Source: an uncultured virus (IMG/VR IMGVR_UViG_3300038828_000071)
Taxonomy: Duplodnaviria; Heunggongvirae; Uroviricota; Caudoviricetes
Virus record (IMG/VR): IMGVR_UViG_3300038828_000071
Coordinates: 1-64,000 of that record
DNA length: 64,000 bases
Reading direction: 5' to 3' (one strand)
Part shown: piece by piece, positions 11,274 to 56,142 of the stretch
How the letters are laid out: every line of letters starts with the position of its first letter
How positions within the stretch are numbered: the stretch's first letter is position 1
The notes under the pieces: model-generated
Databases searched by the model: none
Told to the model about the DNA's origin: nothing
Seen by the model: only the letters and a program-made list of their open reading frames with translations
Made by a program: the position numbers and the translations under genes

Positions 11274-11436
11274 GGCGAAGTTTCATGTATTTTGTTAATA
11301 CTATTTCATCCTCGAAGTGGATTTCTCCACTCTTTTCTGTGGCATTGTACAACCCTAAGACCGTTGGATCAGTCTTGGATAGTTCTTGGATTAAATAATT
11401 AATCTCTGATTGCGTAGTAAATACTAATCGTATCAT
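11263..11436 (-). CDS. 57-aa hypothetical protein (not in ORF track)
   Basis: MIRLVFTTQSEINYLIQELSKTDPTVLGLYNATEKSGEIHFEDEIVLTKYMKLRHEK; preceded by conserved leader motif. Confidence 0.55.
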   Translation of the reverse strand: MIRLVFTTQSEINYLIQELSKTDPTVLGLYNATEKSGEIHFEDEIVLTKYMKLRHEK

Positions 11437-11492
11437 GTTGCGTGATGTTCAGTATTATATCCCTGTCCCCGGTTTTAATTGTTTATTGTTTA

Positions 11493-11711
11493 TTAATCTG
11501 AACTTGTGGAACAATTCCATGTTGTTTTTGATTCATTACTTTTAAATTCGTATAAGCCATAGCCATGCGGATTATAGCCAATTTTATCTTGGATGATTTC
11601 CGCTTCTGTTTGTGTTATAACAGTATTACAGCTAAATAATACTTTGTTTTGCCTTGTTTTATAGGTTACAGAAATTAACCCATATTTTACTGATTTGAAT
11701 TCCTTTGTCAT
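11493..11711 (-). CDS. hypothetical phage protein
   Basis: Q...GY.P.GYG.Y.F......T.W.CS.S.D pattern. Confidence 0.6.
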   Translation of the reverse strand: MTKEFKSVKYGLISVTYKTRQNKVLFSCNTVITQTEAEIIQDKIGYNPHGYGLYEFKSNESKTTWNCSTSSD

Positions 11712-11802
11712 TATCGTAGTGTCTGATTGTAGAGCCAGACTTATTTAGTTATTATTATATTAATCGCTCTTTTGAGTGGCATTATATTATTTATGACACT
11801 TA

Positions 11803-11855
11803 TTCTGTTTCATCCTTTTGGAATCATCAGTCGTGATGCACATCACGATACAGAA
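11803..11855 (-). ncRNA. type III hammerhead ribozyme
   Basis: Minus strand UUCU-GUA/UCGUGAU-GUGC-AUCACGA-CUGAUGA-UUCC-AAAA-GGAU-GAAA-CAGAA: complete core, three stems, GUA cleavage triplet. Confidence 0.88.
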
Positions 11856-11858
11856 AAT

Positions 11859-11886
11859 TGAACAGTTTATACACTTGTTCAGGTGT
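11859..11886 (-). ncRNA. H-type pseudoknot immediately 5' of hammerhead
   Basis: ACAC-C-UGAACA-A-GUGU-AUAAAC-UGUUCA (S1 ACAC/GUGU, S2 UGAACA/UGUUCA). Confidence 0.65.
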
Positions 11887-11892
11887 TAGTAA

Positions 11893-12069
11893 TTAGAAAT
11901 CAATTGTATCTTCAAGTGGTCCTATGAAATATTCAGATTCAATAGGAGCTTTGACTAAAGAACTATTAAAAGATTGTTGTCTAAAATAAGACTCTATCCT
12001 TTTTTTTGATTCTTCTTGCTCTTGTAATTTAGCATATAATTGCCAAATACCAGGAAGTTCTACCCACAT
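11893..12069 (-). CDS. 58-aa hypothetical protein (not in ORF track)
   Basis: MWVELPGIWQLYAKLQEQEESKKRIES...LEDTIDF. Confidence 0.45.
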   Translation of the reverse strand: MWVELPGIWQLYAKLQEQEESKKRIESYFRQQSFNSSLVKAPIESEYFIGPLEDTIDF

Positions 12070-12219
12070 AATATTCTATATCCATAGATCACCGATGGAC
12101 TTGCGGATTAAAGAGAATCATTACAATGAAACTCTCTTTTCCGTGGCATGAAAAACACCCCCCGATACCCAAAAATAGAAAACGGGTACGGGTAGAATAT
12201 GAGTATAGTCCACCCCCCA

Positions 12220-12330
12220 CATTGATTTATTATATCATGTAGATTACCCCAAACATCAATTTATTATATTATTGTATTATCTACCGGCATTGATTTATTA
12301 TATCATGTAGATCACCGCGCGCATCAATTT
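12220..12330. repeat. 34-bp-period tandem repeat at the strand switch
   Basis: Units start 12220, 12254, 12288, 12322; cattgatttattatatcatgtagat exact at 12220 and 12288. Confidence 0.85.
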
Positions 12331-12395
12331 TTATAGCGTCGGACATATTTATTTAATTTACAATAATTTTGTTATTAAGTTAAATAAATACATTA

Positions 12396-12403
12396 CTTTT
12401 GTG
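12396..12403 (+). promoter_or_regulatory. Bacteroidota -7 promoter element TAnnTTTG
   Basis: tacttttg upstream of first plus-strand gene. Confidence 0.5.
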
Positions 12404-12544
12404 GTGTTATAATAAATCTGATTAGTGGTGGATTGGGTTTAATTATTGGTTAATAATGGGTTTATGGTCCAATTATTATGGGATGATCACCACGTAATTA
12501 TCTTATAATTTTTGGGCTATTTTTATTAATTTAAAAGAGTCTTT

Positions 12545-12934
12545 ATGTACAAATTGAGTAATTTAACGTTTTGTTTAATTGATGGTTTTGAGAGTGATTT
12601 TGGGAAGTTTGGGTTAGAGTTTTTGGATAATTTGAGGGCTTTTGTTGGTGACTTGGCTGTTTCAGAGCATACGTCTTTGATATTACCGGAGAAGACGTTG
12701 TTTGAGATGTATGAGAGTAGTCGTTCTGGAAAGTTGAGTATGGGTGAGAGTGCTGATATGTATAGAGGATTTATGTATGATTATGATGATAAGTCATTTT
12801 ATTATGTTAGTTATCGACCTATGGCTGGTTCGGATATATATCCAATAGAGATGAGTATAGGAGATAGGATGTTTGCTTTGAGATTATTATCGGATGATGA
12901 TGTTTTATGTTTAATAAGTACAAATAAATTTTAA
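12545..12934 (+). CDS. hypothetical protein
   Basis: First plus-strand ORF, 129 aa. Confidence 0.55.
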   Translation: MYKLSNLTFCLIDGFESDFGKFGLEFLDNLRAFVGDLAVSEHTSLILPEKTLFEMYESSRSGKLSMGESADMYRGFMYDYDDKSFYYVSYRPMAGSDIYPIEMSIGDRMFALRLLSDDDVLCLISTNKF

Positions 12935-12937
12935 GAT

Positions 12938-14590
12938 ATGGGAAGTTCAATTAAGAGTGGCTTAGAGGCTAAGAGTAGGTTAATATTCGCTATCAATAAG
13001 ATGGCAGATGCTGTAACGAGTACATTGGGTCCGGGTGGTAGAAATGTGATGATAGATACGGGAGGTATGGATGGCATCCATATAACTAAGGATGGAGTAA
13101 CTGTTGCTCGTAGTATCTATTTTAAGGATCCGGTAGAAAATATGGCGGCACAGCTATTAAAGAGTGTTAGTAATGGTTCTGATGCGAATGTTGGTGATGG
13201 TACAACGACATCTGTATTATTGGCACAGAGCATGATTAAGAATGGATTTAGTGTTATGGATAATGTAACATCTATACATGGGTTTATGAAGGGTATGGAG
13301 ATTGCTAAGGCTAACATTTTAAATTTATTTGAAAAACATCGTTGTATTATAGATTATGACAGTAATAATGGGAAGGATATGTTGAGAAATATCTCAATGA
13401 TCTCGAGTAATAATGATAAGGAGATAACAGATGCTGTAATGAAAGGATTGGAAATGGTAGGTAAAGAGGGAGTGTTTAAGATATGGGATAGTGGTACCCA
13501 CCAAACAATTGTTGAGAAGAAAGAGGGAATGCATTATTACAATGGCATGGTAAGTCCTTATTTTGCTAATAATAAGGCAAAAGTGATGTGGGAGTATGAC
13601 AATGTAGATATTTTGATTTACGGTGGTAAATTAGAGCGTTTTAAACAAATCGAAACCATTATGCGCACTAAGTTTATGGGTGATGGTAGTAATGATAATG
13701 CTATTATGATTATTGCCAATGAGTATAGTGATGAATTCACTAATACTGCAGTTGAGAATTTCGTTTATAATAAGATACCTATTGTTTTGGTAAATGCTCC
13801 GGGTTATGGGTTAGAGCAAAAATCCTATTTAGAGGATATAGCTGTAATGACCGGCGGCACTTCTATCATGCCGGAAAAGAATATGAAGATTGAGACTTGT
13901 GGAATTGAGGTTTTGGGACGCGCTTCAAGGGTAGAAACAGGTATGAAAAGTATGATTATTATGGGTGGTAAAGGAAAGCCGGAAGATATTGAAGCTCGTC
14001 GTCTTGAGCTTAAGATGTTGGAAGAAAATGAGACTGATCAATATTATAAGAATAGATATAATGAGAGGTATGCTAAGTTTACCAATGGTATAGCTTTGAT
14101 TAAATTGGGAGCCTATTCAGAGGTTGAGCTTCAAGAAAAGAAATTTAGAATGGAAGATGCCTTAAAAGCTGTAAAGAATGCTATTATCAACGGTTATTTG
14201 CCGGGTGGTGGATTTATGTTTTGGTATGCTAATGTCCATCCAGATATCCTTACTTTTAAAAGTGATGATAAGAATATAATGTACGGTTATGGAACAGTGG
14301 TTTCATCATTATTTGATCATCCTAAAAAGCTTTTTGATAATGTTGGGTTAAACTTTGATGATTATGTACGTGGTTATGCTACCATGGATGGTAAGTATCT
14401 GGGAATTAATTTAGAGACATTAGAAAATGTTGATTTGATTAAAAACGGGATTATTGATCCTTATATGGTGGCTGTTTCCGCATTGAATTATGCGGTATCG
14501 GTAACAAAAACGATACTGACAACAGAGGCAGTTATATATGAAGACGTTGAAGTTGATCCAAAAAGAGAATTAGGAATTTTACAACCATAA
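12938..14590 (+). CDS. groEL: phage-encoded GroEL-like chaperonin
   Basis: TLGPGGRNV, ITKDGVTVA, GDGTTTS, APGYG, EDAL.A, PGGG, GIIDP motifs; no C-terminal GGM tail. Confidence 0.93.
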   Translation: MGSSIKSGLEAKSRLIFAINKMADAVTSTLGPGGRNVMIDTGGMDGIHITKDGVTVARSIYFKDPVENMAAQLLKSVSNGSDANVGDGTTTSVLLAQSMIKNGFSVMDNVTSIHGFMKGMEIAKANILNLFEKHRCIIDYDSNNGKDMLRNISMISSNNDKEITDAVMKGLEMVGKEGVFKIWDSGTHQTIVEKKEGMHYYNGMVSPYFANNKAKVMWEYDNVDILIYGGKLERFKQIETIMRTKFMGDGSNDNAIMIIANEYSDEFTNTAVENFVYNKIPIVLVNAPGYGLEQKSYLEDIAVMTGGTSIMPEKNMKIETCGIEVLGRASRVETGMKSMIIMGGKGKPEDIEARRLELKMLEENETDQYYKNRYNERYAKFTNGIALIKLGAYSEVELQEKKFRMEDALKAVKNAIINGYLPGGGFMFWYANVHPDILTFKSDDKNIMYGYGTVVSSLFDHPKKLFDNVGLNFDDYVRGYATMDGKYLGINLETLENVDLIKNGIIDPYMVAVSALNYAVSVTKTILTTEAVIYEDVEVDPKRELGILQP

Positions 14591-44556: not shown

Positions 44557-44592
44557 AAACCCAATAACTTAAATCTATTGGGTTTTTTTTTT
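44557..44592 (+). terminator. intrinsic terminator abutting TAATTTTG -7 element (44592-44599)
   Basis: aaaacccaata-acttaaatc-tattgggtttttttttt. Confidence 0.7.
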
Positions 44593-44616
44593 AATTTTGC
44601 TTTAAAATTATTCACA

Positions 44617-47600
44617 ATGCCAAGCTACAAAGATTTAATCAAACAGTTTACCGAAGAAGGTTCAAAACAAAATCCAGATTCACCTCAAAATCCACAAGAC
44701 GTAAATTTTGACGTTTTATATGATGAAAATTTTAATCATAGAAAAATAGATGTTACTGCTGCCGGAAACGAAGAAGATATAAGAAAAAGAGCGTCTCAAA
44801 TGGAAGCTGAACGATCTGTTCCATTATCATATAAAGCATCTCAAATAGAAGCCGTAGCAGATAACCAAAGTTTTTCACCTGAATTTTATGATGCAGGATT
44901 TTTTGAAACCTTTGGAAGAAGTATGGCAAAAGGATTAGGTGATCACGTAATTAAAGGAACCGGTGATATGTTANNNNNNNNNNCAAATTTAATTGGCGGT
45001 GATATGTCCGATGATGGTACTGTAGTATCAAGAGCATTACAAGAATGGGGAACAAAAATAAAAGACAATAATGAAGTTTTTATTCCTGATGAATTAAAAC
45101 CTGAAAACATCACTTGGAAAGCGTTTTTTAATCCTGATGCTTGGTCAATACATTTTGCTGAATATATTCCTCAAATAGCCCAATTTATTATGGGTGGAGA
45201 AATTGCATCTGTTGCTACTAAAGGATTAGCAAAAGCCGGCGGTAAAATGTTCCTTGAAAAAGCTATTGCTAAAAAAGGACTTCAAATGCTTAAATCACCA
45301 ATTACGGGAGAAATGGTTGCCGAAGCTGGTTCAGGAATTGGTTTAATTGGAAAAGCTTTTACATCTGCCGGAGAACTTACTGAAGCTGGTGCTTTTTGGT
45401 CCGGCACGATAGGAGCCGGCGTAGTTAACAATTTTGCAAGTGGATTATTAAATGCATCTCAATTTGTAAATCAATATAGAGGTAAAGGAGTATATACAGA
45501 TGAACAATTACAAGAAATGGCAGTTGATATAATGCAAAGAAATGCTTTATGGATGCCAGTGGAAATGGCTTCATGGGGATTAACTTATGCCGGTGGATGG
45601 AAAGGTGTTGGAAATGCATTTAGAGCCACAAAACCCATTATGAAACCCGGAGAAGAAATTGCTAAAGGTATGTTTAGCAACTTTGCTAAAACTACATCTA
45701 AATACATTAAACCTTTAGCATTACCTTCAAAAATTGCATTTGAGGGAGTTGAAGAAAGTTTACAAGAAACATTTGAAGATTGGACTCAAATTAAAGCTGA
45801 AGAAATGCAAACCGGCTATAATAAATATACAAGTTATATGGATTATTATATGTCCGATGATTCAAGAGCAACAAGAATTATATCTGCAATGGCTGGTGTT
45901 GGTGGTGGTGCATTTGGTAATATTAGAGCAGCAATTAATCAAAGTGCTGATGAAAACTTTGATATATTAAATGAAACATTAATGCTACAAAATCAAATAG
46001 ATAGTGGATTTGATGAAGGAGTTGAAATGCAAAAAACACATAGGTCTAATAAATTAATGAGATTAGCATTTAATGAAAGAAATGATATTGCCGGTGGTTT
46101 TATACAAAACTCTTTAGATAAAAATTTAATAAGCCAAGAAGAAGCTGATGATTTGACTGATGAATATAATGGTTATGTTGAAGCGCAAAGCAAAGGAAAA
46201 ACTCTCGGTCTTAATGTAAATGGTCTTTATAAATTCATGGAATCTAAAAAGATTATCCATGATACTAAAAGACGTATTAAAGATGCTCAAGAAAACTTTA
46301 AGATTAAAAATCAAGCGATGCTTGAAGAACCCGGATTGTCTGTTGATGAAAAACTTATTTTAGAAAAAAAACAAGAAGAAGAATTAAAAATATATCTAAC
46401 AGAACAATTGAAACATATTGCTTTTGCTGAAACTAACATAGGTAATATTCTACAAGGTAAAAAAGCAGAAATTAGTCAAGTTAATTCAACTGTTTCAGAT
46501 TACTTCATAAAAAATGAAGGTAGAAAATTTGGAGAACAAGAAGTAATTGAAACACAAGTTCAAGGATTGTCTGATGAAGATTATAATGATTCATATGTAA
46601 AAACTGATGAAGAAATATTTGCTAAAAATAAAAAGGCTTTAGAGCCTAAAAAAATAACTTTAAAAGGTAGAGCTTTAGATTTATTTGATAAATTGAAAGA
46701 CAGCACTTTTAATAAATTATTTAAAAAGGATTCTCAACCAGAACAAAATATACCTGCAGAAAAACAAAAAAATGTTATTGTAACTCCAGATGAAGCTTTT
46801 AGTAAAGATAAGGCTTTTTCTGATTTTGTAAAAAAATCCAATGAGGATGATTTTAATAATTTTGCTAAATTGGAAGATGATATGAAGCAAAGTTATTTCT
46901 CTAATTACAATAAGCAAAACAATATGGAACCAAACAAAGGTTCTAATGTAAATTCTAATCCTGATAATGAAAAGGAATTATTAGATAGGAAAGATGTTTT
47001 AGAAAAAGAGCTTGAAAGTATTAGCGATGATAATAATCCGCGTATTGAAGAAATTGATAAAGAATTGACAGAGATTGAAACAAAATTAAAACCTGTTGAA
47101 ACAAAAAATAAAACAGTAGAACCAAAATCTGTTTCTGCCAATTCTAATATAGAAATTGATGAATTAGAATCGTCTGAAATTACTGATACGTTAGAAGCGG
47201 TTGATATTGCTACCGGAAGAAAAAAAGCAAAATTAAGTCAATTAAAATCTGTTGCTAAGTTTTTAAATGAAAATCCAATAGAGGAAATTCGTAAAAAAAA
47301 CAAACCAACAGAAAAAGAAAATATTGCTAAAATTATTTATAAAAAGTATAAAAAAGAAATTGATGATTTAATTGATCAACAAGAGCTTACCGAACAAGAA
47401 AAGAAAATAGTAGAAAGAAAAAGTTCTACTAAAGAAAAATTGTCCGATAATAAAAACAATATAGATGATGTTGTTTTTGATAAAAATAAATCTACAGATG
47501 ATGATTTAATGGAGAGTTATGAAGAAAAGAAAACTAAAGAAAAGAAAACTAAAGGAATGAAACAAAAATCAGATACAGATGATGATGTATCAATTCCTAC

Positions 47601-50600
47601 ACATGATGTCCTTAGAACTCAATTGCTTTATGCCGAAAAGAATGCTTCTAACATAGATAAAACTAAATTAGAAATAGCACAGTCTAATTACTATGAATAC
47701 ATAAAAGCCAAACATCAATATGGATTGAGAGTTGGAGATAAAATGTATGCTATTAGTAATAGATTAAAAGTATTGTTTCCAAATCAACAAATCAATGTTT
47801 CTCTTGTGGATAACATGATTGATGCTATTGGAATAGATAGTGTCGGATATGCTTTAGGAACCACTATTTATTTAACTGAAGATGCATGGAATAATAGTGA
47901 AACATTTATGCATGAGCTTATGGGCCACGTATATTATTCAGCCGGATCTAATGAACCAATTGTAAAAAAGATAACAAACATAGGTATCAAAAGAGGTTTG
48001 TATAAGGAGATTAGAGAAAACTATCCAGAGTATGTATTAATTAAAGATGCCGATGGAAATGTAAACACATTGGGTAATATTTTAATTGATGCCGGTAGCA
48101 TAGATCCTAATACTGCTTCAATAAGAACTCTGGAAGCTATGTTAAATGAATTAAAAAAGGATGGATATGTAGAATTGCCACAAGAAGAACAATCGTTTAT
48201 TACAGAGGAAGTTTTTGCCAGAACAATACAATCTACCGGAACTAAAAAGTTTGATAACTTCTTTAATGCACAAGATAAAATTGCAACTAAATCTTTTTGG
48301 AATTGGTTTACAAAATATATGTCTAATAACTTAGAAAAAGATAAAGATAAAGTTAATTATGATAAAATCATAATGGATTCTGAGAATGGTAAATATTTCT
48401 CTGATGATGAAATAATGGATGCTTTTGTTAAAAGTTTTCCAGAAGAATTTAATAAGAAACAAATCAACTACGGTTCCGGTGAAAGACTTTCATTCTTAGG
48501 CATGAAAATGAAAAAGAAAGTTGATGAACAAAAAGAAAAAAATACCATAAGAAAAGAAATAGATAAACAATTAACTAATGCTTATAAATCAGGTGAAAAT
48601 GTTTTATCTATTCCAGAAAAAAATGAGAATGAGTCTATTGAAGATAATCAATATTCTTATGAGCAAAGACAAAGCATTTATGAGGAAAGCTTACAACAAA
48701 AACTTTTAAAAGCCACTAAAATATTAGATAACTTCGTTAAAAGTTATAATAGAATTTCTCGTAAAATTAATTTTCAAAAAGAAGAAAATGTTGAAGGAAT
48801 TTTAGATGGTGTTGTATTTAAAAATGAAATGTCATTGTTAGCAAGAAATTCCGACAATTCAACTGATTTTATATTTATACTTGAAAATTCAAAACTTCAA
48901 GAAATGCAAGCTTTTATGGAATGGATGGATTACGCATTCAAACCAAATACTAAATATGCCATATTAAGCCAAATGCAAGCTATTTATTCAAACCTTGAAG
49001 ATCATTCCGGAATGAAAACATTCTTAAAAGAGAATGGTGAAATAGTGCTTGAAACAGCTCTTTCTAAAAATGAAATGAGTCAAGTCGATTACATAATGGG
49101 ACGATTAAGTGACTTTAGACAAGGCTCTATTGATGTAGCAAAAAGAAATAATCAAAATCCTTTAGAAACGCAGGTTCAAATAGAAAGACAAAATTACCAT
49201 TCAAAAAAATGGAAAGAGTTTGTTGCTGCTATAAATGATTTAAAAAATAATACTAATGTAGATGAATCATTGAGAATCATTTTAAGAGCGTTGGGAGATA
49301 CAAGTTATATAAATTTAGGAGAATTGGCTAAAAATGGTCAATTGGTAATAGGTAATAAGCAAATGCCTATATATGCTGTAATTAAAAACTTTGTCGATAA
49401 GGATATGCACCTTACTAAAGAAGGTAATTATGCCGGTAAAATATCTCCAGTCAATTTTAGACCTCTTATTCAAGCAATAGTAAACACAAATAGAAGATAT
49501 CGTTTTGATAGTATTGTTAAAAATGCCGAAGGTAATAATACTCCTGTTAAAGCAATTGGAAGTACTTTAACAAGAGAGTTAAAAGAAATGAAATCATTTT
49601 TAGGAACCAATAAAAGTTTAAATACTTTTCTAAAAAGATATTCAGGAATTCTTGCTAAAAAAGGTATAGAAAATCAACTTTTAGTCGATATATATAACTT
49701 TTATAAAAAAAATGGAACATTCCCAGAGCTGATCCAAGATTTGGGTATTGAAGTTCAAAATAAAGAGTCAGGAACCTTATTTAAAGAATCAAGTTCAAAT
49801 GAACAATTCTTACAAGGATTGAATAGATTTTTAATTTCTAAAAATGATACTTATCTCCAACAAATACAATTATTTGGAGACAGCCCAAGAGCATTCATGC
49901 TTTCTACCACTAAATATAAAAATTCAGATATAGATAAACACCTTAAATCTGTTTATCAAATTTATAAAGAGAAAGGTGGTGAAAACATAAGTTTTAATAA
50001 ATTTAAACAAAGCGTTTATAATATTCAAAGTCATGTTGATTTTCTAAATGATAATGCCAATCAATTATTTAAATATGCTCCATATAAAGCATTGTTTTCT
50101 AATGTAAATGGTAAATTAACATTAAACCAAAAAGGAATAGATGAATTAAGTAATTATGTAGCAAACTCAACAATTAACTCAATGTTCTTGTCTGATGTAT
50201 TAACACCAAATGTTCCATTTAAAAAAGAAACAAAAGTTGGTAAAAACTTATCATCACCAGGTTTTGTATTTGATAAAAAACATAAGATTGGAACTATTTT
50301 CGTTGCCGATCCAAATAAAGATATGGATGGGCAGCAATTCATATTAGAAGAAGATGCCCAAAAATGGGGATTAACTGCCGGAAACATTATGGATTTAGGA
50401 AATGGATTCAAGTTCCTTAATCACTCCATAGAAAGAGATAATCAACATCTTAAAGGAGTTAATCAATTGAAGTCATATACAATTATACTTAATGATGATT
50501 ATGTTGATCAAAATCCTAAATATAAAGGACTTTATGAATTGATGAAAAAGGAAAAAGCAAAATATGAACAGTGGTTTAAAAAGACTTATCCAAATAAAGA

Positions 50601-53600
50601 AATTACCAATGTTTTAAATGATGGCGAAGAACACCACACCGTAATAGCTACAACAGAAGGTTCTGTAAAAACTAATACAATTCCTTCTCGTTTAGGTAGT
50701 GTTGATTTTTATACAAATAATGGTGATGGAGTTAAAACAAGCCCATTTACATTAGATGCTTTAAATCAAAGTACTGTAGATGCTGAGAAGTACTTAAACA
50801 GATTAAACTATAACAATCGTGGAAACTTTGTTGGAATAAAAGGATCTGATTTAGAAGTTCAAAATAAAATGGATAAGATTACTAAAAGTGTTCAAACTCC
50901 AATTCAGTTAATTGACAATATTTTAACTTCTGCAGGAAGTTTAGATATGGAGATTGCTGAAAAAATTCAAAGTCTCTTTACTTCTTCCATGCTTGAAAAA
51001 TTTAGTGAAATTACTAATAAGCTTGATAAAAATGATCCTGAGTTTTTAGAAAACTTTGTCCTTAAAAACATGAATAGGGATGAAATGGATCAAACGCAAA
51101 GATTCTTAATCGAAAATATTGGAATATTTGGACCAAGAGTAAATACTATTGTAAACAATCAAATAGCAAACTCATTAAAGAAAGCCGGTAATAAATTGCT
51201 TACCAATGGTACATATGCTCAACCTAAATCAGATTCAGGATATTTATCTAAAGATTACCATACAAGTAAAACCGGACCTTCTAAATTAGCAAATTATGGA
51301 ATAAATAGCGATGGAACCACAAGAGAAATGGAAGCTATTTTACCGGCTCATATGGAAACTGATGGTATTAATAAAAGAATGATAATTGCATTAGACAATA
51401 CTGCCGGAAAAATGGCTATTAAAAATTATAGACATGCTCAATCTAAAAAGAATAATGCTAAAATAGATGAATTAGAAAAACAGGGCTATAAAGATTTAAT
51501 TCCATTATATTATGCTGCCATTGATGAAGCTAAAAAAAGACATTCAAAAGCAAATGATGAAAATATAAATGATTATGTATTTAATGCTTATGATGATAAT
51601 GGGAAACTTGTTGGATATTTTGTAAAAGGAGATACTGTTGTTGCTACACGCGTACCATCACATGGTCCATCTTCTACAATATGGTTAGAAGTTATTGATT
51701 TTGATAAATCAAAAGGTAATCAAATTACTGTTTCCACTAAATACAAAGATATTACTGGTGGTGATTATGACGGTGATGCATTATTTATTCAATCAAAAAC
51801 AAATAGTAATTCTAAGATTAATACAGCTATACAAATGTTACAAGATTTATGGCTTAGTCCAGAATACCATAAATTGATAACAACAAAATTAGACTTTGTT
51901 GATGAAACACAAAAAATAACTGATGATGTTAATGCAAAGTTTAATAGAAAAAATGAAATTATTATTCCTGGAACTCCAAAATCATTCATGAAAAATTTTG
52001 ATGATTACATTATTGCTAATAGAAATATTGGTTCAGGATTTAATTTGCATAAAATTTTAGGATTATTGTCGGCTTATGATACTGAATATAAAACAGGTGT
52101 TAGCATTAATGGTAAATCATTTAAAATATTAACCAATAAACAAGATAATGGTTTACATGGTGATGGAATAGAAAGTAGAAATATGAAATCTGCAATCTTA
52201 GCAAACATTATCTTGGATAATAAAACTTGGCAACAAGCTAATGACTTAGGAATAAATGATAATACTATAGTTGTTGTATCTCAATTAACAAACCTTGGAG
52301 TTCCATTAAAAGATATTTCATTTATAATGAATCATCCAATAGTTAAAAAAATGAGTGATAAACTCGATAATGGAAAATCAGAATTATTGGAAAATGTAAA
52401 TCCTTTTACTATTACAGATACTTTGAAAGTTGGAAATAAAAAAGCTGGTTTAACAATAATATCTGATCCGACAAATAAAGAGTTTTATAGTGATGCAAAT
52501 GCTAATGCAATATTGGAAATGTTTAAATATTTAGGTAATGCCAATAGCCAATTACAAAAAGCAATTAAAATATTGTCTGGACATAATAAAATAGAAAATA
52601 ACCCATTGTTGTTAGAACAACAAATAAGTGATTATTTAAGTTTTATGAATAATAGCTTAGAAGGTCAAGAATTCATTATTAAAGAGAATGTAAAGAATAA
52701 TCCAAATAATAGAAAATTCTTGACTGTAGCTCAAAAAACACTTGATACTTTAAAGAAATCAAGCTTTTATTATCATCCAAAAACAATAAAGCTACTTGAA
52801 AACATTAAAGATTCAATTAGCTATAATGGATTGACAGATAAAAGAATTTATTCTTTGACAAAAAATATTGAAACATTTATGAATTCCAGATTACTCGGGA
52901 TGAATAATATTTCAAAATCCATGTATGATCAAGTATTAGATAAAAATCCTTTGTCGGAAGAAAGTGTTTATAATGAACTTAGAGATCATATAAAAGACAT
53001 TAAAAAAGAAAAAAATGGTTATGGGAAATTCAAAAGCAATTTACTATTATCAAAAGCATTGATATATAATTTTTATGGAGATAATAAATACATATCTATC
53101 AATCCATCTTTCTTTAATGATTCCTTAAGTGATAAAGAATACAATCAGGTTCAAGAAGAATTTAATCAATTACCAGATAGACTGCAAAAAAGACTTTTAG
53201 TTTATGATATTATTAAAAATGGATTTTCTTCTCCATATTCATTAACTCCAATATTTGGGTTTTATAATGAAGCTATGGAGTTTAAAAGAAAAAATCAATA
53301 CATTGATAAATCATCCGGTAAATATGATGAAATATCAAATAGTGTAATTGATAGACTTCAAAAAATATTGACAGATTATGCTTTACTAAATGAAAGATCA
53401 GGCGTTCCAGAATTAGAACTTACTAAAGAACAATATTCAAAAAATAAATTAGAAACTGTTTTAAATAAAATAGAAACTAAACCAACTTTAATTAAAAAAA
53501 TAAAAGATAAAAAGGCTTTTTATGTTAAAGTAAAATCCGGTAATGAAAGTTCAATTGTAAAGATTGAATCTATGACTGATGAAGATTTTGAGGTTTTAAG

Positions 53601-56142
53601 TTATATGAATAGAGGTCGATTTAAAGAAGATCATAGAAGAAAATTATTATTAGAAAAAGTCCAGGAATACAAGCCTGAAAATATTAATAATGATAATTTA
53701 AATATTCATATAGCATCTATTAAAGATAAATCTATTGAAGATCCTTTTTTAAATTCATATAGTAACTTGTTTAAAAAAAAAAGTAGTTCCCCAATTAGTG
53801 GAATGAAGCAAAAAGCATACATTAATTATTCTGATGCTAAAGTTTTATCACAGAATGAATTTAATGATGCTATGGAGTTTAATAAAAATTATTCTGATAC
53901 GCAGAAAAAAGCTGCTTATTTATTGTATCAGGAAAATAAAGATAAAGCTAATAAAATAGCTTTAAATTATACTCCAGACAAAGTTTCTAAGATGCCAACG
54001 GATAAGTTATTTAATGATTTTCAAATCTATGGAAATAAAGAAGCTTTTTCTTATTCTATTATTACAACTCCAATAGTTACTGAATTGGCTAATAGAATGG
54101 CTCAGGAACAAGTTAAACTTACCGGGATGAATGAAGATGGTAGTGATATAAAAGCTATAACAGCATGGATGCAATCAAATAATATACCATCAAATCATCC
54201 GGCTACACAAGCATTGGTTAGAGAGCTCACTTTAAAATATAGAGATTTTCAAAACGAAAAAAGAAATTATACCGAAAGAATTTCAAAAGCTACAAAAGAG
54301 TTGTATAAATCAAAATTTGGTTTTGATCCAACAAGCAACAGTATTAAAAATACTTTTAAAAAAATTACAAATTTCTTTTTTTCAAATAGAAAAAACTTAT
54401 ACCAACATCTATATGGAAATTTAGTCGAATACTTTGAATATACTGATGATTTTACTAATGAAGTAAAAAAAGATTTTAAAATGAAATCTTTGGGCCAATT
54501 AGATTATGAACATACAAAAAATTTGATATCTGATGCCGAATTTGAGTTTGCAAAAATATTTCACGAAACAACAGATTCTTTAAAAAAATACTCTATTGGA
54601 GATAAGCAAGGTCGAGAAGGATATATTCCTCATGTTGCCATGGGTACATTTGAGACACTATACAATCAAGGATTATTAGGTGTTTTAATAAATTCTAAAA
54701 CAGAAGATGAAAGATTAGGTGATGTTAAGCTATTTTTTGCAGAAGATGGTGAAATGGTTTTAATGCCATTTAGTGATATTAAAAATCATTTCATGTCTCA
54801 ATCAGGCAATTTTGAAAACACAAAAGATTTCATTACCTTAAAATACAAAGCAATGAAATTACTTAAGAAAGGACAAAATGAAGATGGTACTCAAATTGAA
54901 TATTCTGATGTAGAAATAAAATCAGCAATAGGTCAATCCGGGTTAATGAATAGATTTAGTAATCAAAGAAGTAATAAAGCTATAATGATTCCTTCAATGG
55001 ATTTACATAAAGCATTGACACAATATGTTCATAGCACATTATTTGTTAATGGTAATGATAAATTTGAAGGATTTAAGAAGCTTTTACCTCTTGTTGATGG
55101 TGTTCTATCATACAACCAAAAAAGAAGCTTTGATAACATAAATAAATACGTTAAAACAGTATGGAAAGATTACTTCTTTACCGGTAAAAAACAAGAAACT
55201 TTTGGTAAGCTTGGTGATCAGGTATTAAAAAAATCTGTATTTGCCAACTTACTATGGATACTTGGATGGAAAGGACTTGTAATTGGTAAAGGTCTTTATG
55301 CAATTAACAATGTTGTCAATGGTAAATACATGCATATTAAAAATACCGGCAATTGGATTAAAGGTGAAAAAAGATATTGGGGATTGGATCAAAGCATTTT
55401 AAATCCTTTTGATATTATCAATCGGAATAAAAGAGTAAATAATATTCTTAAAAATATGAACATGCTCGATATAAATATATACGATGATGTTCAAATAACG
55501 GAAAGCGGTGAATTGGATAATTTCGTTAGCAATTTAGCATTGATGCCTATGACGTGGAGTGAACATTGGATTCAAAATGTACAGGCATTATCAATACTTA
55601 CAGATGAAGAATTTGATAGTTTTGATGAAAATGGAAACTATAGAAAAGGTTCTATTCCAATTAGCAATCAAAGGATATTAGAAATAGAAGAAGAAATAAG
55701 AAGAAGTCAAGGTAAAGGATATCAACCAACAGACCAAAGAATGATTCAAATGTATTCTTTTGGTGAAGCAATCATGCAGTTTAATAGATTTATTCCAACT
55801 ATGTTTTGGGATCGATTTGCTAAAGAAGATATCGATATATATGGCAAAAGACATATTGGAACATTGCGAGCTGTTGGTAATGGAATAAGAGAAGCTGTTG
55901 GTAAAATGAATCCTAAAGAATTTATAAATTATAGAAATTCACTTCCACCAGAATTAAGAAAATCATTTGATTCCGGTTTAAAAGGTATCGGCATTAGCAC
56001 ACTGGCATTAATTGTAGGATCACAAATGAATAGTGATGTAGCAAATGAATTGTATAAAGATTCTAATTATTATAATAATGCAAATCATTTGCTTTATAAG
56101 TCTATACCATCATTAGCCAGAACCGTTACAGGCATTAAATAA
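44617..56142 (+). CDS. giant virion RNA polymerase polyprotein (crAss-like double-psi beta-barrel RNAP)
   Basis: ATRVPSHGPSS and ITGGDYDGDALF catalytic motifs, zincin-like HELMGH, EE..Q repeat region; ATG 44617 gives ~3841 aa; N gap 44974-44983. Confidence 0.88.
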   Translation: MPSYKDLIKQFTEEGSKQNPDSPQNPQDVNFDVLYDENFNHRKIDVTAAGNEEDIRKRASQMEAERSVPLSYKASQIEAVADNQSFSPEFYDAGFFETFGRSMAKGLGDHVIKGTGDMLXXXXNLIGGDMSDDGTVVSRALQEWGTKIKDNNEVFIPDELKPENITWKAFFNPDAWSIHFAEYIPQIAQFIMGGEIASVATKGLAKAGGKMFLEKAIAKKGLQMLKSPITGEMVAEAGSGIGLIGKAFTSAGELTEAGAFWSGTIGAGVVNNFASGLLNASQFVNQYRGKGVYTDEQLQEMAVDIMQRNALWMPVEMASWGLTYAGGWKGVGNAFRATKPIMKPGEEIAKGMFSNFAKTTSKYIKPLALPSKIAFEGVEESLQETFEDWTQIKAEEMQTGYNKYTSYMDYYMSDDSRATRIISAMAGVGGGAFGNIRAAINQSADENFDILNETLMLQNQIDSGFDEGVEMQKTHRSNKLMRLAFNERNDIAGGFIQNSLDKNLISQEEADDLTDEYNGYVEAQSKGKTLGLNVNGLYKFMESKKIIHDTKRRIKDAQENFKIKNQAMLEEPGLSVDEKLILEKKQEEELKIYLTEQLKHIAFAETNIGNILQGKKAEISQVNSTVSDYFIKNEGRKFGEQEVIETQVQGLSDEDYNDSYVKTDEEIFAKNKKALEPKKITLKGRALDLFDKLKDSTFNKLFKKDSQPEQNIPAEKQKNVIVTPDEAFSKDKAFSDFVKKSNEDDFNNFAKLEDDMKQSYFSNYNKQNNMEPNKGSNVNSNPDNEKELLDRKDVLEKELESISDDNNPRIEEIDKELTEIETKLKPVETKNKTVEPKSVSANSNIEIDELESSEITDTLEAVDIATGRKKAKLSQLKSVAKFLNENPIEEIRKKNKPTEKENIAKIIYKKYKKEIDDLIDQQELTEQEKKIVERKSSTKEKLSDNKNNIDDVVFDKNKSTDDDLMESYEEKKTKEKKTKGMKQKSDTDDDVSIPTHDVLRTQLLYAEKNASNIDKTKLEIAQSNYYEYIKAKHQYGLRVGDKMYAISNRLKVLFPNQQINVSLVDNMIDAIGIDSVGYALGTTIYLTEDAWNNSETFMHELMGHVYYSAGSNEPIVKKITNIGIKRGLYKEIRENYPEYVLIKDADGNVNTLGNILIDAGSIDPNTASIRTLEAMLNELKKDGYVELPQEEQSFITEEVFARTIQSTGTKKFDNFFNAQDKIATKSFWNWFTKYMSNNLEKDKDKVNYDKIIMDSENGKYFSDDEIMDAFVKSFPEEFNKKQINYGSGERLSFLGMKMKKKVDEQKEKNTIRKEIDKQLTNAYKSGENVLSIPEKNENESIEDNQYSYEQRQSIYEESLQQKLLKATKILDNFVKSYNRISRKINFQKEENVEGILDGVVFKNEMSLLARNSDNSTDFIFILENSKLQEMQAFMEWMDYAFKPNTKYAILSQMQAIYSNLEDHSGMKTFLKENGEIVLETALSKNEMSQVDYIMGRLSDFRQGSIDVAKRNNQNPLETQVQIERQNYHSKKWKEFVAAINDLKNNTNVDESLRIILRALGDTSYINLGELAKNGQLVIGNKQMPIYAVIKNFVDKDMHLTKEGNYAGKISPVNFRPLIQAIVNTNRRYRFDSIVKNAEGNNTPVKAIGSTLTRELKEMKSFLGTNKSLNTFLKRYSGILAKKGIENQLLVDIYNFYKKNGTFPELIQDLGIEVQNKESGTLFKESSSNEQFLQGLNRFLISKNDTYLQQIQLFGDSPRAFMLSTTKYKNSDIDKHLKSVYQIYKEKGGENISFNKFKQSVYNIQSHVDFLNDNANQLFKYAPYKALFSNVNGKLTLNQKGIDELSNYVANSTINSMFLSDVLTPNVPFKKETKVGKNLSSPGFVFDKKHKIGTIFVADPNKDMDGQQFILEEDAQKWGLTAGNIMDLGNGFKFLNHSIERDNQHLKGVNQLKSYTIILNDDYVDQNPKYKGLYELMKKEKAKYEQWFKKTYPNKEITNVLNDGEEHHTVIATTEGSVKTNTIPSRLGSVDFYTNNGDGVKTSPFTLDALNQSTVDAEKYLNRLNYNNRGNFVGIKGSDLEVQNKMDKITKSVQTPIQLIDNILTSAGSLDMEIAEKIQSLFTSSMLEKFSEITNKLDKNDPEFLENFVLKNMNRDEMDQTQRFLIENIGIFGPRVNTIVNNQIANSLKKAGNKLLTNGTYAQPKSDSGYLSKDYHTSKTGPSKLANYGINSDGTTREMEAILPAHMETDGINKRMIIALDNTAGKMAIKNYRHAQSKKNNAKIDELEKQGYKDLIPLYYAAIDEAKKRHSKANDENINDYVFNAYDDNGKLVGYFVKGDTVVATRVPSHGPSSTIWLEVIDFDKSKGNQITVSTKYKDITGGDYDGDALFIQSKTNSNSKINTAIQMLQDLWLSPEYHKLITTKLDFVDETQKITDDVNAKFNRKNEIIIPGTPKSFMKNFDDYIIANRNIGSGFNLHKILGLLSAYDTEYKTGVSINGKSFKILTNKQDNGLHGDGIESRNMKSAILANIILDNKTWQQANDLGINDNTIVVVSQLTNLGVPLKDISFIMNHPIVKKMSDKLDNGKSELLENVNPFTITDTLKVGNKKAGLTIISDPTNKEFYSDANANAILEMFKYLGNANSQLQKAIKILSGHNKIENNPLLLEQQISDYLSFMNNSLEGQEFIIKENVKNNPNNRKFLTVAQKTLDTLKKSSFYYHPKTIKLLENIKDSISYNGLTDKRIYSLTKNIETFMNSRLLGMNNISKSMYDQVLDKNPLSEESVYNELRDHIKDIKKEKNGYGKFKSNLLLSKALIYNFYGDNKYISINPSFFNDSLSDKEYNQVQEEFNQLPDRLQKRLLVYDIIKNGFSSPYSLTPIFGFYNEAMEFKRKNQYIDKSSGKYDEISNSVIDRLQKILTDYALLNERSGVPELELTKEQYSKNKLETVLNKIETKPTLIKKIKDKKAFYVKVKSGNESSIVKIESMTDEDFEVLSYMNRGRFKEDHRRKLLLEKVQEYKPENINNDNLNIHIASIKDKSIEDPFLNSYSNLFKKKSSSPISGMKQKAYINYSDAKVLSQNEFNDAMEFNKNYSDTQKKAAYLLYQENKDKANKIALNYTPDKVSKMPTDKLFNDFQIYGNKEAFSYSIITTPIVTELANRMAQEQVKLTGMNEDGSDIKAITAWMQSNNIPSNHPATQALVRELTLKYRDFQNEKRNYTERISKATKELYKSKFGFDPTSNSIKNTFKKITNFFFSNRKNLYQHLYGNLVEYFEYTDDFTNEVKKDFKMKSLGQLDYEHTKNLISDAEFEFAKIFHETTDSLKKYSIGDKQGREGYIPHVAMGTFETLYNQGLLGVLINSKTEDERLGDVKLFFAEDGEMVLMPFSDIKNHFMSQSGNFENTKDFITLKYKAMKLLKKGQNEDGTQIEYSDVEIKSAIGQSGLMNRFSNQRSNKAIMIPSMDLHKALTQYVHSTLFVNGNDKFEGFKKLLPLVDGVLSYNQKRSFDNINKYVKTVWKDYFFTGKKQETFGKLGDQVLKKSVFANLLWILGWKGLVIGKGLYAINNVVNGKYMHIKNTGNWIKGEKRYWGLDQSILNPFDIINRNKRVNNILKNMNMLDINIYDDVQITESGELDNFVSNLALMPMTWSEHWIQNVQALSILTDEEFDSFDENGNYRKGSIPISNQRILEIEEEIRRSQGKGYQPTDQRMIQMYSFGEAIMQFNRFIPTMFWDRFAKEDIDIYGKRHIGTLRAVGNGIREAVGKMNPKEFINYRNSLPPELRKSFDSGLKGIGISTLALIVGSQMNSDVANELYKDSNYYNNANHLLYKSIPSLARTVTGIK

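Follow-up and report, generated by a model that had tools for sequence, protein, structure and literature searches.

A type III hammerhead ribozyme fused to a recurrent mini-pseudoknot in an uncultured phage: a possible self-cleaving module of mRNA punctuation

The minus strand of a 64,000-nucleotide (nt) stretch of DNA from an uncultured virus (IMG/VR record IMGVR_UViG_3300038828_000071, positions 1 to 64,000; hereafter the window) carries, between two small open reading frames (ORFs) of 58 and 72 amino acids (ORF58 and ORF72), a 28-nt H-type mini-pseudoknot (11859..11886) followed by a type III hammerhead ribozyme of the U10.1/U11.1 class (11803..11855). The window belongs to a source genome of 78,535 bases, 99% complete according to CheckV, in which there is exactly one hammerhead. 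We lean towards the view that the two elements form a two-part, protein-independent mRNA punctuation module ("cut-and-cap") on a leftward transcript of small accessory genes. The folds, their covariation and their recurrent coupling were computed; cleavage, transcription and the effects on RNA decay are what we infer from them.

Taken by itself the hammerhead is ordinary, a further member of a phage class that has already been published. Phage hammerheads have been known to be common since 2011, and their role there is unsettled. The knot is uncatalogued in Rfam, and its fusion to hammerheads is the part that is worth experiment.

The hammerhead and its relatives

All the elements of a type III hammerhead can be read on the minus strand. 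Stem III pairs UUCUGU (11855-11850) with ACAGAA (11808-11803). Stem I, of 6 bp, pairs 11848-11843 with 11836-11831 and is closed by loop I, UGUGCA (11842-11837), whose outer U and A can pair to give the 7-bp stem of the earlier note on this DNA. The core CUGAUGA (11830-11824) is followed by U10.1 (11823), by the three pairs of stem II, UCC/GGA (11822-11820 with 11815-11813), which enclose loop II, AAAA (11819-11816), by U11.1 (11812), which faces U10.1, and finally by GAAA (11811-11808). The conserved type III core (C3 U4 G5 A6 N7 G8 A9, G12 A13 A14, A15.1-U16.1, H17) is complete, with U16.1 at 11850 and A17 at 11849, and cleavage is predicted at the GUA site, 3' of A17, between 11849 and 11848. 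The complete type III hammerhead described in the earlier note was thus found element by element where that note had placed it, with the core and all three helices present.

The Rfam hammerhead model RF00008 aligns end to end (model positions 1-54) to 11802-11856 (-), with a score of 34.0 bits and an E-value of 7.9e-6 on 301 nt, and the penalties fall at the 10.1/11.1 mismatch and at the short stem II. In a search of the whole window at the Rfam gathering thresholds there were no matches, and the hammerhead surfaces only under E-value thresholds. The minimum-energy fold of 11895-11795 holds all three hammerhead helices and is modestly better than those of shuffled sequences (z -1.94). Our own hammerhead model, R1, gives 76.4 bits to the window sequence, which is in the training set of R1.

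A search by blastn with 2 kb around the site returned as its sole match a 45-nt stretch of the ribozyme, with 89% identity, in 12 Pseudomonas Bruynoghevirus records. The exact 24-mer that runs from the core through stem II to GAAAC is present in 36 IMG/VR stretches, 12 Pseudomonas phage records and 9 GTDB genome contigs, eight of the nine contigs being full type III hammerheads on R1. When the 38 first loci were compared with the window by tblastx, there was no match at 1e-5; in their flanks, then, the carriers of the identical 24-mer are not relatives of the window phage. A looser hammerhead pattern, which fixed loop I (UGNG), the core, two U and UGAAAC, was found in at least 126 IMG/VR stretches with 99 unique sequences; a perfect 6-bp stem I and at least four of five stem III pairs are present in 98 of these.

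Three alignments were used for the analysis of covariation: A2, with 98 unique hammerhead relatives; A1, a hammerhead set in which loop I was not fixed; and A3, with 132 knots including that of the window. In A2, 95.5% of the cells are paired, compared with 67.0 +/- 0.8% after shuffling (a value reached by 0 of 500 shuffles) and with at most 46.9% when the partner strand is slid. For stem I the paired fraction is 99.6%, and changes on both sides are seen in six of seven pairs; for stem II it is 100%, with such changes in three of three pairs, and for stem III 88.4%, with such changes in four of six. It should be noted that the pattern fixed U.U, so that the constancy of U.U in A2 is uninformative. 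The stem II with U.U and UCC/GGA is kept in at least 22 unique sequences.

The loops are also conserved where the patterns left them free: U-G-N-G is invariant or nearly so in loop I of A1, and NAAA is conserved in loop II of A2. This fits a loop-loop tertiary contact of some type, because such a contact predicts conserved loops, and loop I probably docks on loop II. Loop I of the window hammerhead may resemble that of the sTRSV ribozyme, as the earlier note proposed. On the comparative evidence, which we regard as decisive, 11855-11803 (-) is a hammerhead.

The phage class with the U10.1/U11.1 mismatch was described by Perreault et al. (2011; PMC3088659), who tested it in Pseudomonas phage PaP3. 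The "unusual U.U at 10.1/11.1" of the earlier note is therefore unusual with respect to the general hammerhead consensus, but it had already been published. In the parts of PMC3088659 on which we draw, the item tested is a "PaP3 phage potential type3 HH at end of genome", PaP3 is shown in the figure of active variants (Fig. S6), and the text of that figure gives stem II (U.U, U-A, C-G, C-G) and stem I as they are read in phage DL54. The same parts report that U.U is the best-tolerated mismatch at 10.1/11.1, with more activity than other mismatches there, and that natural variants exist; slow, possibly regulated phage variants are also discussed.

In the 45,503-bp record of PaP3 the hammerhead occupies 45419-45477, immediately ahead of orf71, and this copy scores 69.7 bits on R1. 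A PaP3-type hammerhead is carried by 71 Pseudomonas phage records, and the Bruynoghevirus copies score 69.7-74.4 bits on R1. When two Pseudomonas phage loci were searched with cmscan at E <=0.1 no match was returned, even though R1 scores them at 74 bits, and we attribute this to the filter or the threshold. Homology to the PaP3 ribozyme, which is reported to be active, predicts that the window hammerhead cleaves itself.

Some observations on the distribution of the class may be added here. Seven of the nine GTDB contigs with the 24-mer (L366-L373 are among the nine) are labelled as metagenome-assembled genomes (MAGs) of Patescibacteria or the candidate phyla radiation (CPR), namely three Saccharibacteria, one Woesebacteria, one Paceibacterota and two others; the CPR-labelled contigs may be phage contigs binned with the MAGs, or prophages. 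A type I circular permutation, with stem III closed and stem I open but with identical core and stem II, was seen in L011 (1493-1543; IMG/VR) and in L374 (93-143; a Clostridia MAG contig), so that the ribozyme module exists in two topologies. Two or three U.U-class hammerheads occur within a few kb on the IMG/VR contigs 3300012936_000039, 3300008113_000328, 3300030090_000213 and 3300025102_000050, and on L121, where two copies are 450 nt apart. These multi-copy contigs match the prophage arrangement described in 2011, whereas the window genome holds a single copy.

The mini-pseudoknot and its family

The first stem of the knot, S1, pairs ACAC (11886-11883) with GUGU (11874-11871), and the second, S2, pairs UGAACA (11881-11876) with UGUUCA (11864-11859). 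The linkers are L1, a single C (11882), L2, a single A (11875), and the A-rich L3, AUAAAC (11870-11865); a 3-nt spacer, AUU (11856..11858), leads from S2 to stem III of the ribozyme. The consensus of the family comprises a 4-bp S1, a 1-nt L1 (C), an S2 5' strand UGARYA, a 1-nt L2, an L3 ending in AAAC, and an S2 3' strand UGYUYN. The window knot fits it at every position of A3, without gaps.

A search with a pattern for the knot alone returned at least 131 IMG/VR stretches, and 97 of the 131 unique knot sequences have a perfect 4-bp S1 and at least five S2 pairs. In A3, 93.2% of the cells are paired, compared with 78.4 +/- 0.7% after shuffling (reached in 0 of 500 shuffles) and at most 41.8% with a slid partner. 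Three of the four S1 pairs change on both sides, and the three pairs that were not forced by the pattern are nearly always formed, with four pair types each (one such column pair has GC 70, AU 24, CG 21, UA 16 and unpaired 1). Changes on both sides are also seen in two S2 pairs, and the knot strand has G.U pairs. Because it is interleaved, the complementarity of the knot is not a DNA palindrome. The same interlocked pattern, with differing letters in both stems, is found upstream of several unrelated hammerheads. Judged by the covariation of both stems in 132 sequences, the knot is a genuine, widespread phage RNA fold, and the pseudoknot proposed in the earlier note is upheld as a conserved one.

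No Rfam family covers the knot, either in the window or in 20 family loci searched at E <=1. The matches in these 20 loci were tRNAs, two sub-threshold hammerheads and one S15-leader match (E 0.42) that lies away from the knot. A literature search, which included the survey of phage structured RNAs PMC10690425, found neither the knot nor the knot-hammerhead unit in the parts of the papers covered; the supplementary alignments of PMC3088659 may hold class members with their flanks.

In the window, S1 begins (11886) 6 nt past the UAA stop of ORF58, which ends at 11893. A similar spacing is the peak of the distribution in the family: in 49 of 126 well-formed knots, the nearest upstream stop triplet in any frame lies 5-7 nt before S1. 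A tRNA 5' end follows the knot by 1-13 nt in 17 of the 126, and 12 of these 17 are tRNA-Asp, possibly a lineage effect. Knots before phage tRNA genes are present in L191, L196, L197, L206, L211, L215, L221, L239, L247, L254, L270, L295, L300 and others. A tRNA 5' end is another cleavage site. A run of U follows the knot in 18 of the 126. Wherever its surroundings are readable, the knot sits just upstream of an RNA 3' end.

Structure is not enriched downstream of the 126 knots (mean -4.23 vs -3.78 kcal/mol in shuffled sequences). Only four U follow the window knot, two of which belong to stem III, and no intrinsic terminator was listed on the minus strand in a scan of 11300-12700. Several of the knots near tRNA genes have CCA directly after S2. 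The possibility that the knot causes stop-codon readthrough or frameshifting was considered and rejected: the in-frame extension would reach 22 codons into the ribozyme, a slippery site is absent, and many members of the family precede tRNAs.

Coupling of the knot to the ribozyme

With strict criteria, the knot has one match in the 78,535-base genome, compared with 0, 0, 0, 1 and 0 in five shuffled genomes; loose criteria are uninformative genome-wide, with 52 matches against 39-55 in shuffles. The single hammerhead and the single strict knot of the genome are therefore 3 nt apart. A knot lies directly upstream of 6 of 101 unique U.U-class hammerheads, as compared with 6 of 2020 shuffled flanks and none of 101 downstream flanks.

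A fusion pattern which fixed only the 3' half of the knot and a generic hammerhead start was found in 60 stretches, corresponding to 51 unique IMG/VR sequences. Of these sequences, 21 combine a hammerhead with a perfect knot; in 5 others the knot in front of the hammerhead has one S1 mismatch, and the remaining 25 show neither element. All 26 hammerhead-bearing matches show the knot 5' half, which the pattern did not force; none has a hammerhead without a knot. The ribozymes of these fusions span several stem II classes, including some with G-C at 10.1/11.1. In the fusions, S2 is separated by 0-1 nt from the 5' strand of stem III, which is 4-5 nt long, and the knot is 5-6 nt from the predicted new 3' end.

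The place of the knot is commonly taken by another structure. A hairpin with a minimum free energy of -8 kcal/mol or stronger is present in the 45 nt before A17 in 72 of the 101 class members, while in a 40-nt comparison 5 of 100 downstream flanks reach -8 kcal/mol. The last pair of the upstream hairpin is no more than 11 nt from the cut in 68 of the 72, and no more than 7 nt from it in 54. In 26 of the 72 the hairpin comes within 4 nt of the cut and overlaps the 5' strand of stem III, so that after cleavage it could extend and swallow the tail. On the other side of the ribozyme, the first open AUG is 20-29 nt past stem III in 64 of the 101 members, and within 39 nt in 96. The typical unit of the class is a structure, a hammerhead, a leader of 20-29 nt and a start codon. 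The idea of an upstream 3' end capped by structure, put forward in the earlier note, fits this comparative pattern, in which a knot or a strong hairpin abuts stem III in most relatives. That the adjacency of knot and hammerhead in the window would be no accident is argued by their single copies in the genome, by the 6 of 101 hammerheads with a knot upstream, by the matches to the fusion pattern and by the tight junction in those fusions.

The upstream hairpins of L005, L006, L007, L014, L026, L027, L032, L036 and others share a GUGUC...GACAC core. This hairpin may also be a protein-binding or polymerase signal.

A possible mechanism and its alternatives

In the cut-and-cap reading, the hammerhead would fold once the polymerase had passed 11803, the hairpins of stems I and II forming first and stem III closing last, and loops I and II would probably dock. 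The ribozyme would then cut itself 3' of A17 (11849), separating ORF58 from the downstream part. The upstream RNA, consisting of the leader and ORF58, would end in the 28-nt knot and a 10-nt tail with a 2',3'-cyclic phosphate. At 6 nt past the stop, the knot would be, by our own estimate, near enough to protect the whole ORF and yet clear of the unwinding by the terminating ribosome, and it would cap the upstream 3' end against 3'-to-5' exonucleases. These enzymes need a single-stranded tail of about 7-10 nt to engage. The downstream RNA would begin with a 5'-OH at the foot of stem I, a poor entry for 5'-end-dependent decay. With a capped 3' end upstream and a structured 5'-OH end downstream, the two halves of the operon would gain independent stabilities and expression.

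For intercistronic hammerheads of phages and prophages, the parts of PMC3088659 considered here propose a role in cutting long transcripts into gene-length mRNAs. They also describe a hammerhead of the haloviruses HF1/HF2 that lies 13 nt before a start codon and whose cleavage site is within 3 nt of the mapped transcript 5' end.

A bolder version, which we regard as possible but rather doubtful, makes the unit an obligate cassette. The knot, or the hairpin replacing it, would stack on a stem III that is too short by itself and license its folding, and would then serve as a near-flush cap, resistant to 3'-to-5' exonucleases, on the cyclic-phosphate end; the several hundred knots that stand alone would then be this cap in use on ends produced by RNase P, terminators or other nucleases.

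Several points weigh against the cut-and-cap reading. The Watson-Crick pair at 10.1/11.1 (G-C in the consensus) is absent from the window hammerhead, where U11823 faces U11812, and the Hammerhead_3 search suggested by the earlier note, though it gave the end-to-end alignment with RF00008, did so at 34.0 bits, below the gathering score of 48.5. The window fusion is looser than the others: its spacer has 3 nt, its stem III has 6 bp, and its tail has 10 nt in place of the 5-6 nt found elsewhere. In addition, ORF72 starts 91 nt past the ribozyme, compared with the 20-29 nt commonest in the family. A hammerhead follows the knot in just 2 of the 126 well-formed knots, and in 89 of them no recognized cut site, tRNA or U-run follows; as knots are mostly without a ribozyme, the knot must have a ribozyme-independent function. 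Of the seven loci related through the GroEL-like gene, the two nearest (59-60% identity) show no hammerhead in the 665 and 1695 nt of upstream sequence covered; these flanks are short and the divergence large, and the module would seem not to be conserved at the locus across 59-60% identity. In a metatranscriptome run (5% of sampled words, contigs only), no contig lies over 11502-12113 and the ribozyme is outside the coverage, which weighs neither way on its transcription. Finally, the family counts are of unique sequences rather than of separate lineages, and the alignments derive from patterns that fix some of the columns.

The best placed of the alternatives, although we consider it unlikely, is compatible with cut-and-cap. 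In this explanation the knot or hairpin is mainly a folding clamp, which stacks coaxially on the short stem III, blocks invasion from upstream and speeds the cutting, end protection being a by-product. Stem III is indeed short in the class (4-6 bp in 83 of the 101 U.U-class hammerheads), and the 0-1 nt with which S2 or the hairpin abuts it in the fusions is a geometry that permits helix stacking. However, stacking is less natural with the 3-nt spacer and the 6-bp stem III of the window; the 26 hairpins that take in part of stem III on its 5' side would be competitors of the ribozyme; 29 of the 101 class members have no strong upstream structure; and upstream folding is weak in the Bruynoghevirus copies, although PaP3 is listed as active.

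It appears quite improbable that the two elements are independent neighbours, the knot being a gene-end element anchored to the stop codon (a mark or pause at the cistron end, or a signal of the terminator or RNase kind) and the hammerhead a gene-start element, which touch because the gap is short. This would agree with the 124 of 126 knots that have no hammerhead behind them, with the 95 of 101 hammerheads that have no knot, and with the tendency of the knot to track stop triplets and of the hammerhead to track the next AUG. It would also agree with the IMG/VR locus L210, in which a knot (114-149) identical to that of the window over all 28 nt is found in another context, with no ribozyme after it. 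Against mere proximity, both elements are single-copy and adjacent in the window genome, the junction is fixed at 0-1 nt across diverse stems and several stem II classes, and in the majority of the other hammerheads the slot of the knot is occupied by a hairpin. Single-copy adjacency, fixed junction and substitution by a hairpin suggest that the slot itself is selected.

A further possibility, to which we assign a very low probability, is that the knot blocks 5'-to-3' enzymes or ribosomes in the manner of coremin, and so protects or insulates the downstream RNA. Its H-type shape, the 4-bp first hairpin, and the loop pairing past an A-rich spacer that ends in AAAC plus U recall the coremin-type exonuclease-resistant RNAs (xrRNAs), as described in parts of PMC10520033 and PMC10321173. 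However, the consensus given for loop 1 of xrRNA-C/xrRNA-WCC is YGAD or YGNNAD (PMC10520033, in part), and the 8-nt loop between the S1 strands of the window knot, CUGAACAA, departs from it, its second base being U and not G. Nor is the required second hairpin enriched behind the knots, as seen from the downstream energies given above; in the window, the ribozyme helices follow the knot after 3 nt, in the place where an xrRNA needs that hairpin, and ribozyme cleavage would detach the knot from the RNA to be protected.

We give hardly any credence to a hammerhead that is inactive or very slow here, as a decaying copy or a conditional switch without constitutive processing: the score below the Rfam threshold, the U.U at the most conserved pair of stem II, the presence of only three Watson-Crick pairs in that stem and the slow, possibly regulated variants discussed in parts of PMC3088659 would fit it, but no core position deviates, the same stem II recurs in the 22 or more unique sequences mentioned above while stem II covaries across the class, and the same parts of PMC3088659 ascribe to U.U more activity than to other mismatches and list PaP3 as active.

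If cut-and-cap is confirmed, the module would be a compact, host-independent part for the control of mRNA stability, and a mark for the annotation of gene boundaries in uncultured phage genomes. The obligate cassette, if true, would mean that phages encode in RNA, independently of host enzymes, both the punctuation of operons and the setting of mRNA half-life, and a knot resistant to 3'-to-5' enzymes would mirror the viral xrRNAs, which stop enzymes that move 5' to 3'. A rule that can be tested follows from the comparison: a phage type III hammerhead usually has a stable structure 5' of stem III and a start codon about 20-29 nt 3' of it. The present locus is the best functional clue so far for the widespread 28-nt knot.

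Genomic setting

The ribozyme lies in a minus-strand block of tightly packed small ORFs without PHROG or Pfam matches, which runs from 12069 to 8613. The putative ORF58 (11893..12069, minus strand) is upstream of the knot. Downstream, a putative mini-ORF of 13 codons (11741..11782, minus strand) has its AUG exactly 20 nt past stem III, which is the lower limit of the distance bin that is commonest for the start of the next gene in the hammerhead relatives, and ORF72 (11493..11711, minus strand) is the next ORF of some size. A 5-bp hairpin (11739-11720) is present between the mini-ORF and ORF72.

A plus-strand block diverges from this one and, from 12545, comprises a 129-amino-acid ORF, a GroEL-like chaperonin and the terminase, portal and capsid genes. 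The chaperonin (12938-14590, plus strand) is full-length (phrog_5725, E 3.6e-111) and adjoins the structural genes. An ORF of 3854 amino acids in the same block (44578-56142, plus strand) has no PHROG or Pfam matches, and no tRNAs were found in the window. The relatives of the terminase among 50,697 phage records are crAss-like phages only (27 records, with 21-24% identity among the 15 listed). The crAss-like label of the earlier note rests on this terminase, with its identity of just 23-24% to crAss-like phages, and is weak; the phage would be at best a distant relative of the crAss-like group.

The earlier note had placed the ribozyme in an early-gene leader. Such a label is an analogy with PaP3, whose ORFs 57-71 are early genes (PMC4707531, in part). 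It is not borne out in the window, where the flanking ORFs match no family and where the site, after ORF58, is intercistronic and not in a leader. The hammerhead is about 370 nt downstream of the likely promoter region, and past ORF58.

The region between the divergent gene blocks contains, some 370 nt upstream of the ribozyme, a block of about 110 nt (12125-12235) that is non-coding and shares 74-75% identity with two relatives linked by GroEL. The three otherwise diverged phages align here over 12115-12245 of the window, 1028-1158 of L041 and 1-128 of L040. The conserved sequence ATATAATA precedes the block, which overlaps two dubious ORF calls of 43 and 38 amino acids and which folds better on the minus strand (-22.5 vs -15.2 kcal/mol, from three sequences only). 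A contig from a relative in the metatranscriptome covers 12122-12211 of it, and the same run covers 11400-11479 and parts of 12122-12390. The block could be a structured leader or a small RNA at the start of the leftward transcript.

A 25-nt direct repeat with a TATAAT-like box, noticed by eye at 12312-12288 and 12244-12220 (minus strand), the copies lying 68 nt apart, suggests tandem promoters of the leftward block. A sigma-70 scan of 11300-12700 found promoter-like sites to be no more numerous than in shuffles. A leftward transcript running from about 12220-12320 through ORF58, the knot and the ribozyme would fit this arrangement.

Comparison with known systems

With the general family RF00008, the window hammerhead shares all core nucleotides, the three helices and the end-to-end match; it differs in the U.U that replaces G-C at 10.1/11.1, in a stem II that is shorter and in a loop II of 4 nt. 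The likeness to the hammerheads of PaP3 and the other Bruynogheviruses is closer, and extends to the core, U10.1/U11.1, the UCC/GGA stem II, a 6-bp stem I, a loop of the UGUG type and the type III topology. Loop II is UAAA in PaP3 and AAAA in the window, and stems I and III of the window differ by compensated changes. In the Bruynogheviruses, however, the ribozyme precedes the gene annotated as first in the early block, which is orf71 in PaP3 and gp71 in DL54, the start codon is inside stem III or 2 nt past it, and neither a pseudoknot nor a strong hairpin precedes the ribozyme.

The hammerheads of polycistronic phage and prophage transcripts described in parts of PMC3088659 are likewise intercistronic in a phage operon. 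In those parts, a capping hairpin or pseudoknot upstream is not given as part of the unit; the window ribozyme, for its part, is single-copy and not tandem.

The coremin xrRNA-C/xrRNA-WCC (parts of PMC10520033 and PMC10321173) have in common with the knot the small H-type fold, the 4-bp first stem, the A-rich spacer ending in AAAC and the size. The knot differs in its S2 of 6 bp instead of about 3, in its prokaryotic hosts, in the loop sequence and in the second hairpin, for which its family shows no enrichment, and the direction of protection is probably opposite. Within its own family the window copy also stands apart, as most gene-end mini-pseudoknots stand alone or precede tRNAs or U-runs, whereas this one is fused to a ribozyme.

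Parallel in outline are the intercistronic RNase III sites of phage T7 and synthetic ribozyme insulators such as RiboJ, in both of which a cut between cistrons leaves a structured 3' end upstream and a defined, structured 5' end downstream. RiboJ is engineered and has its extra hairpin downstream, not upstream, of the ribozyme; the T7 sites need a host enzyme, whereas the module of the window would cut itself.

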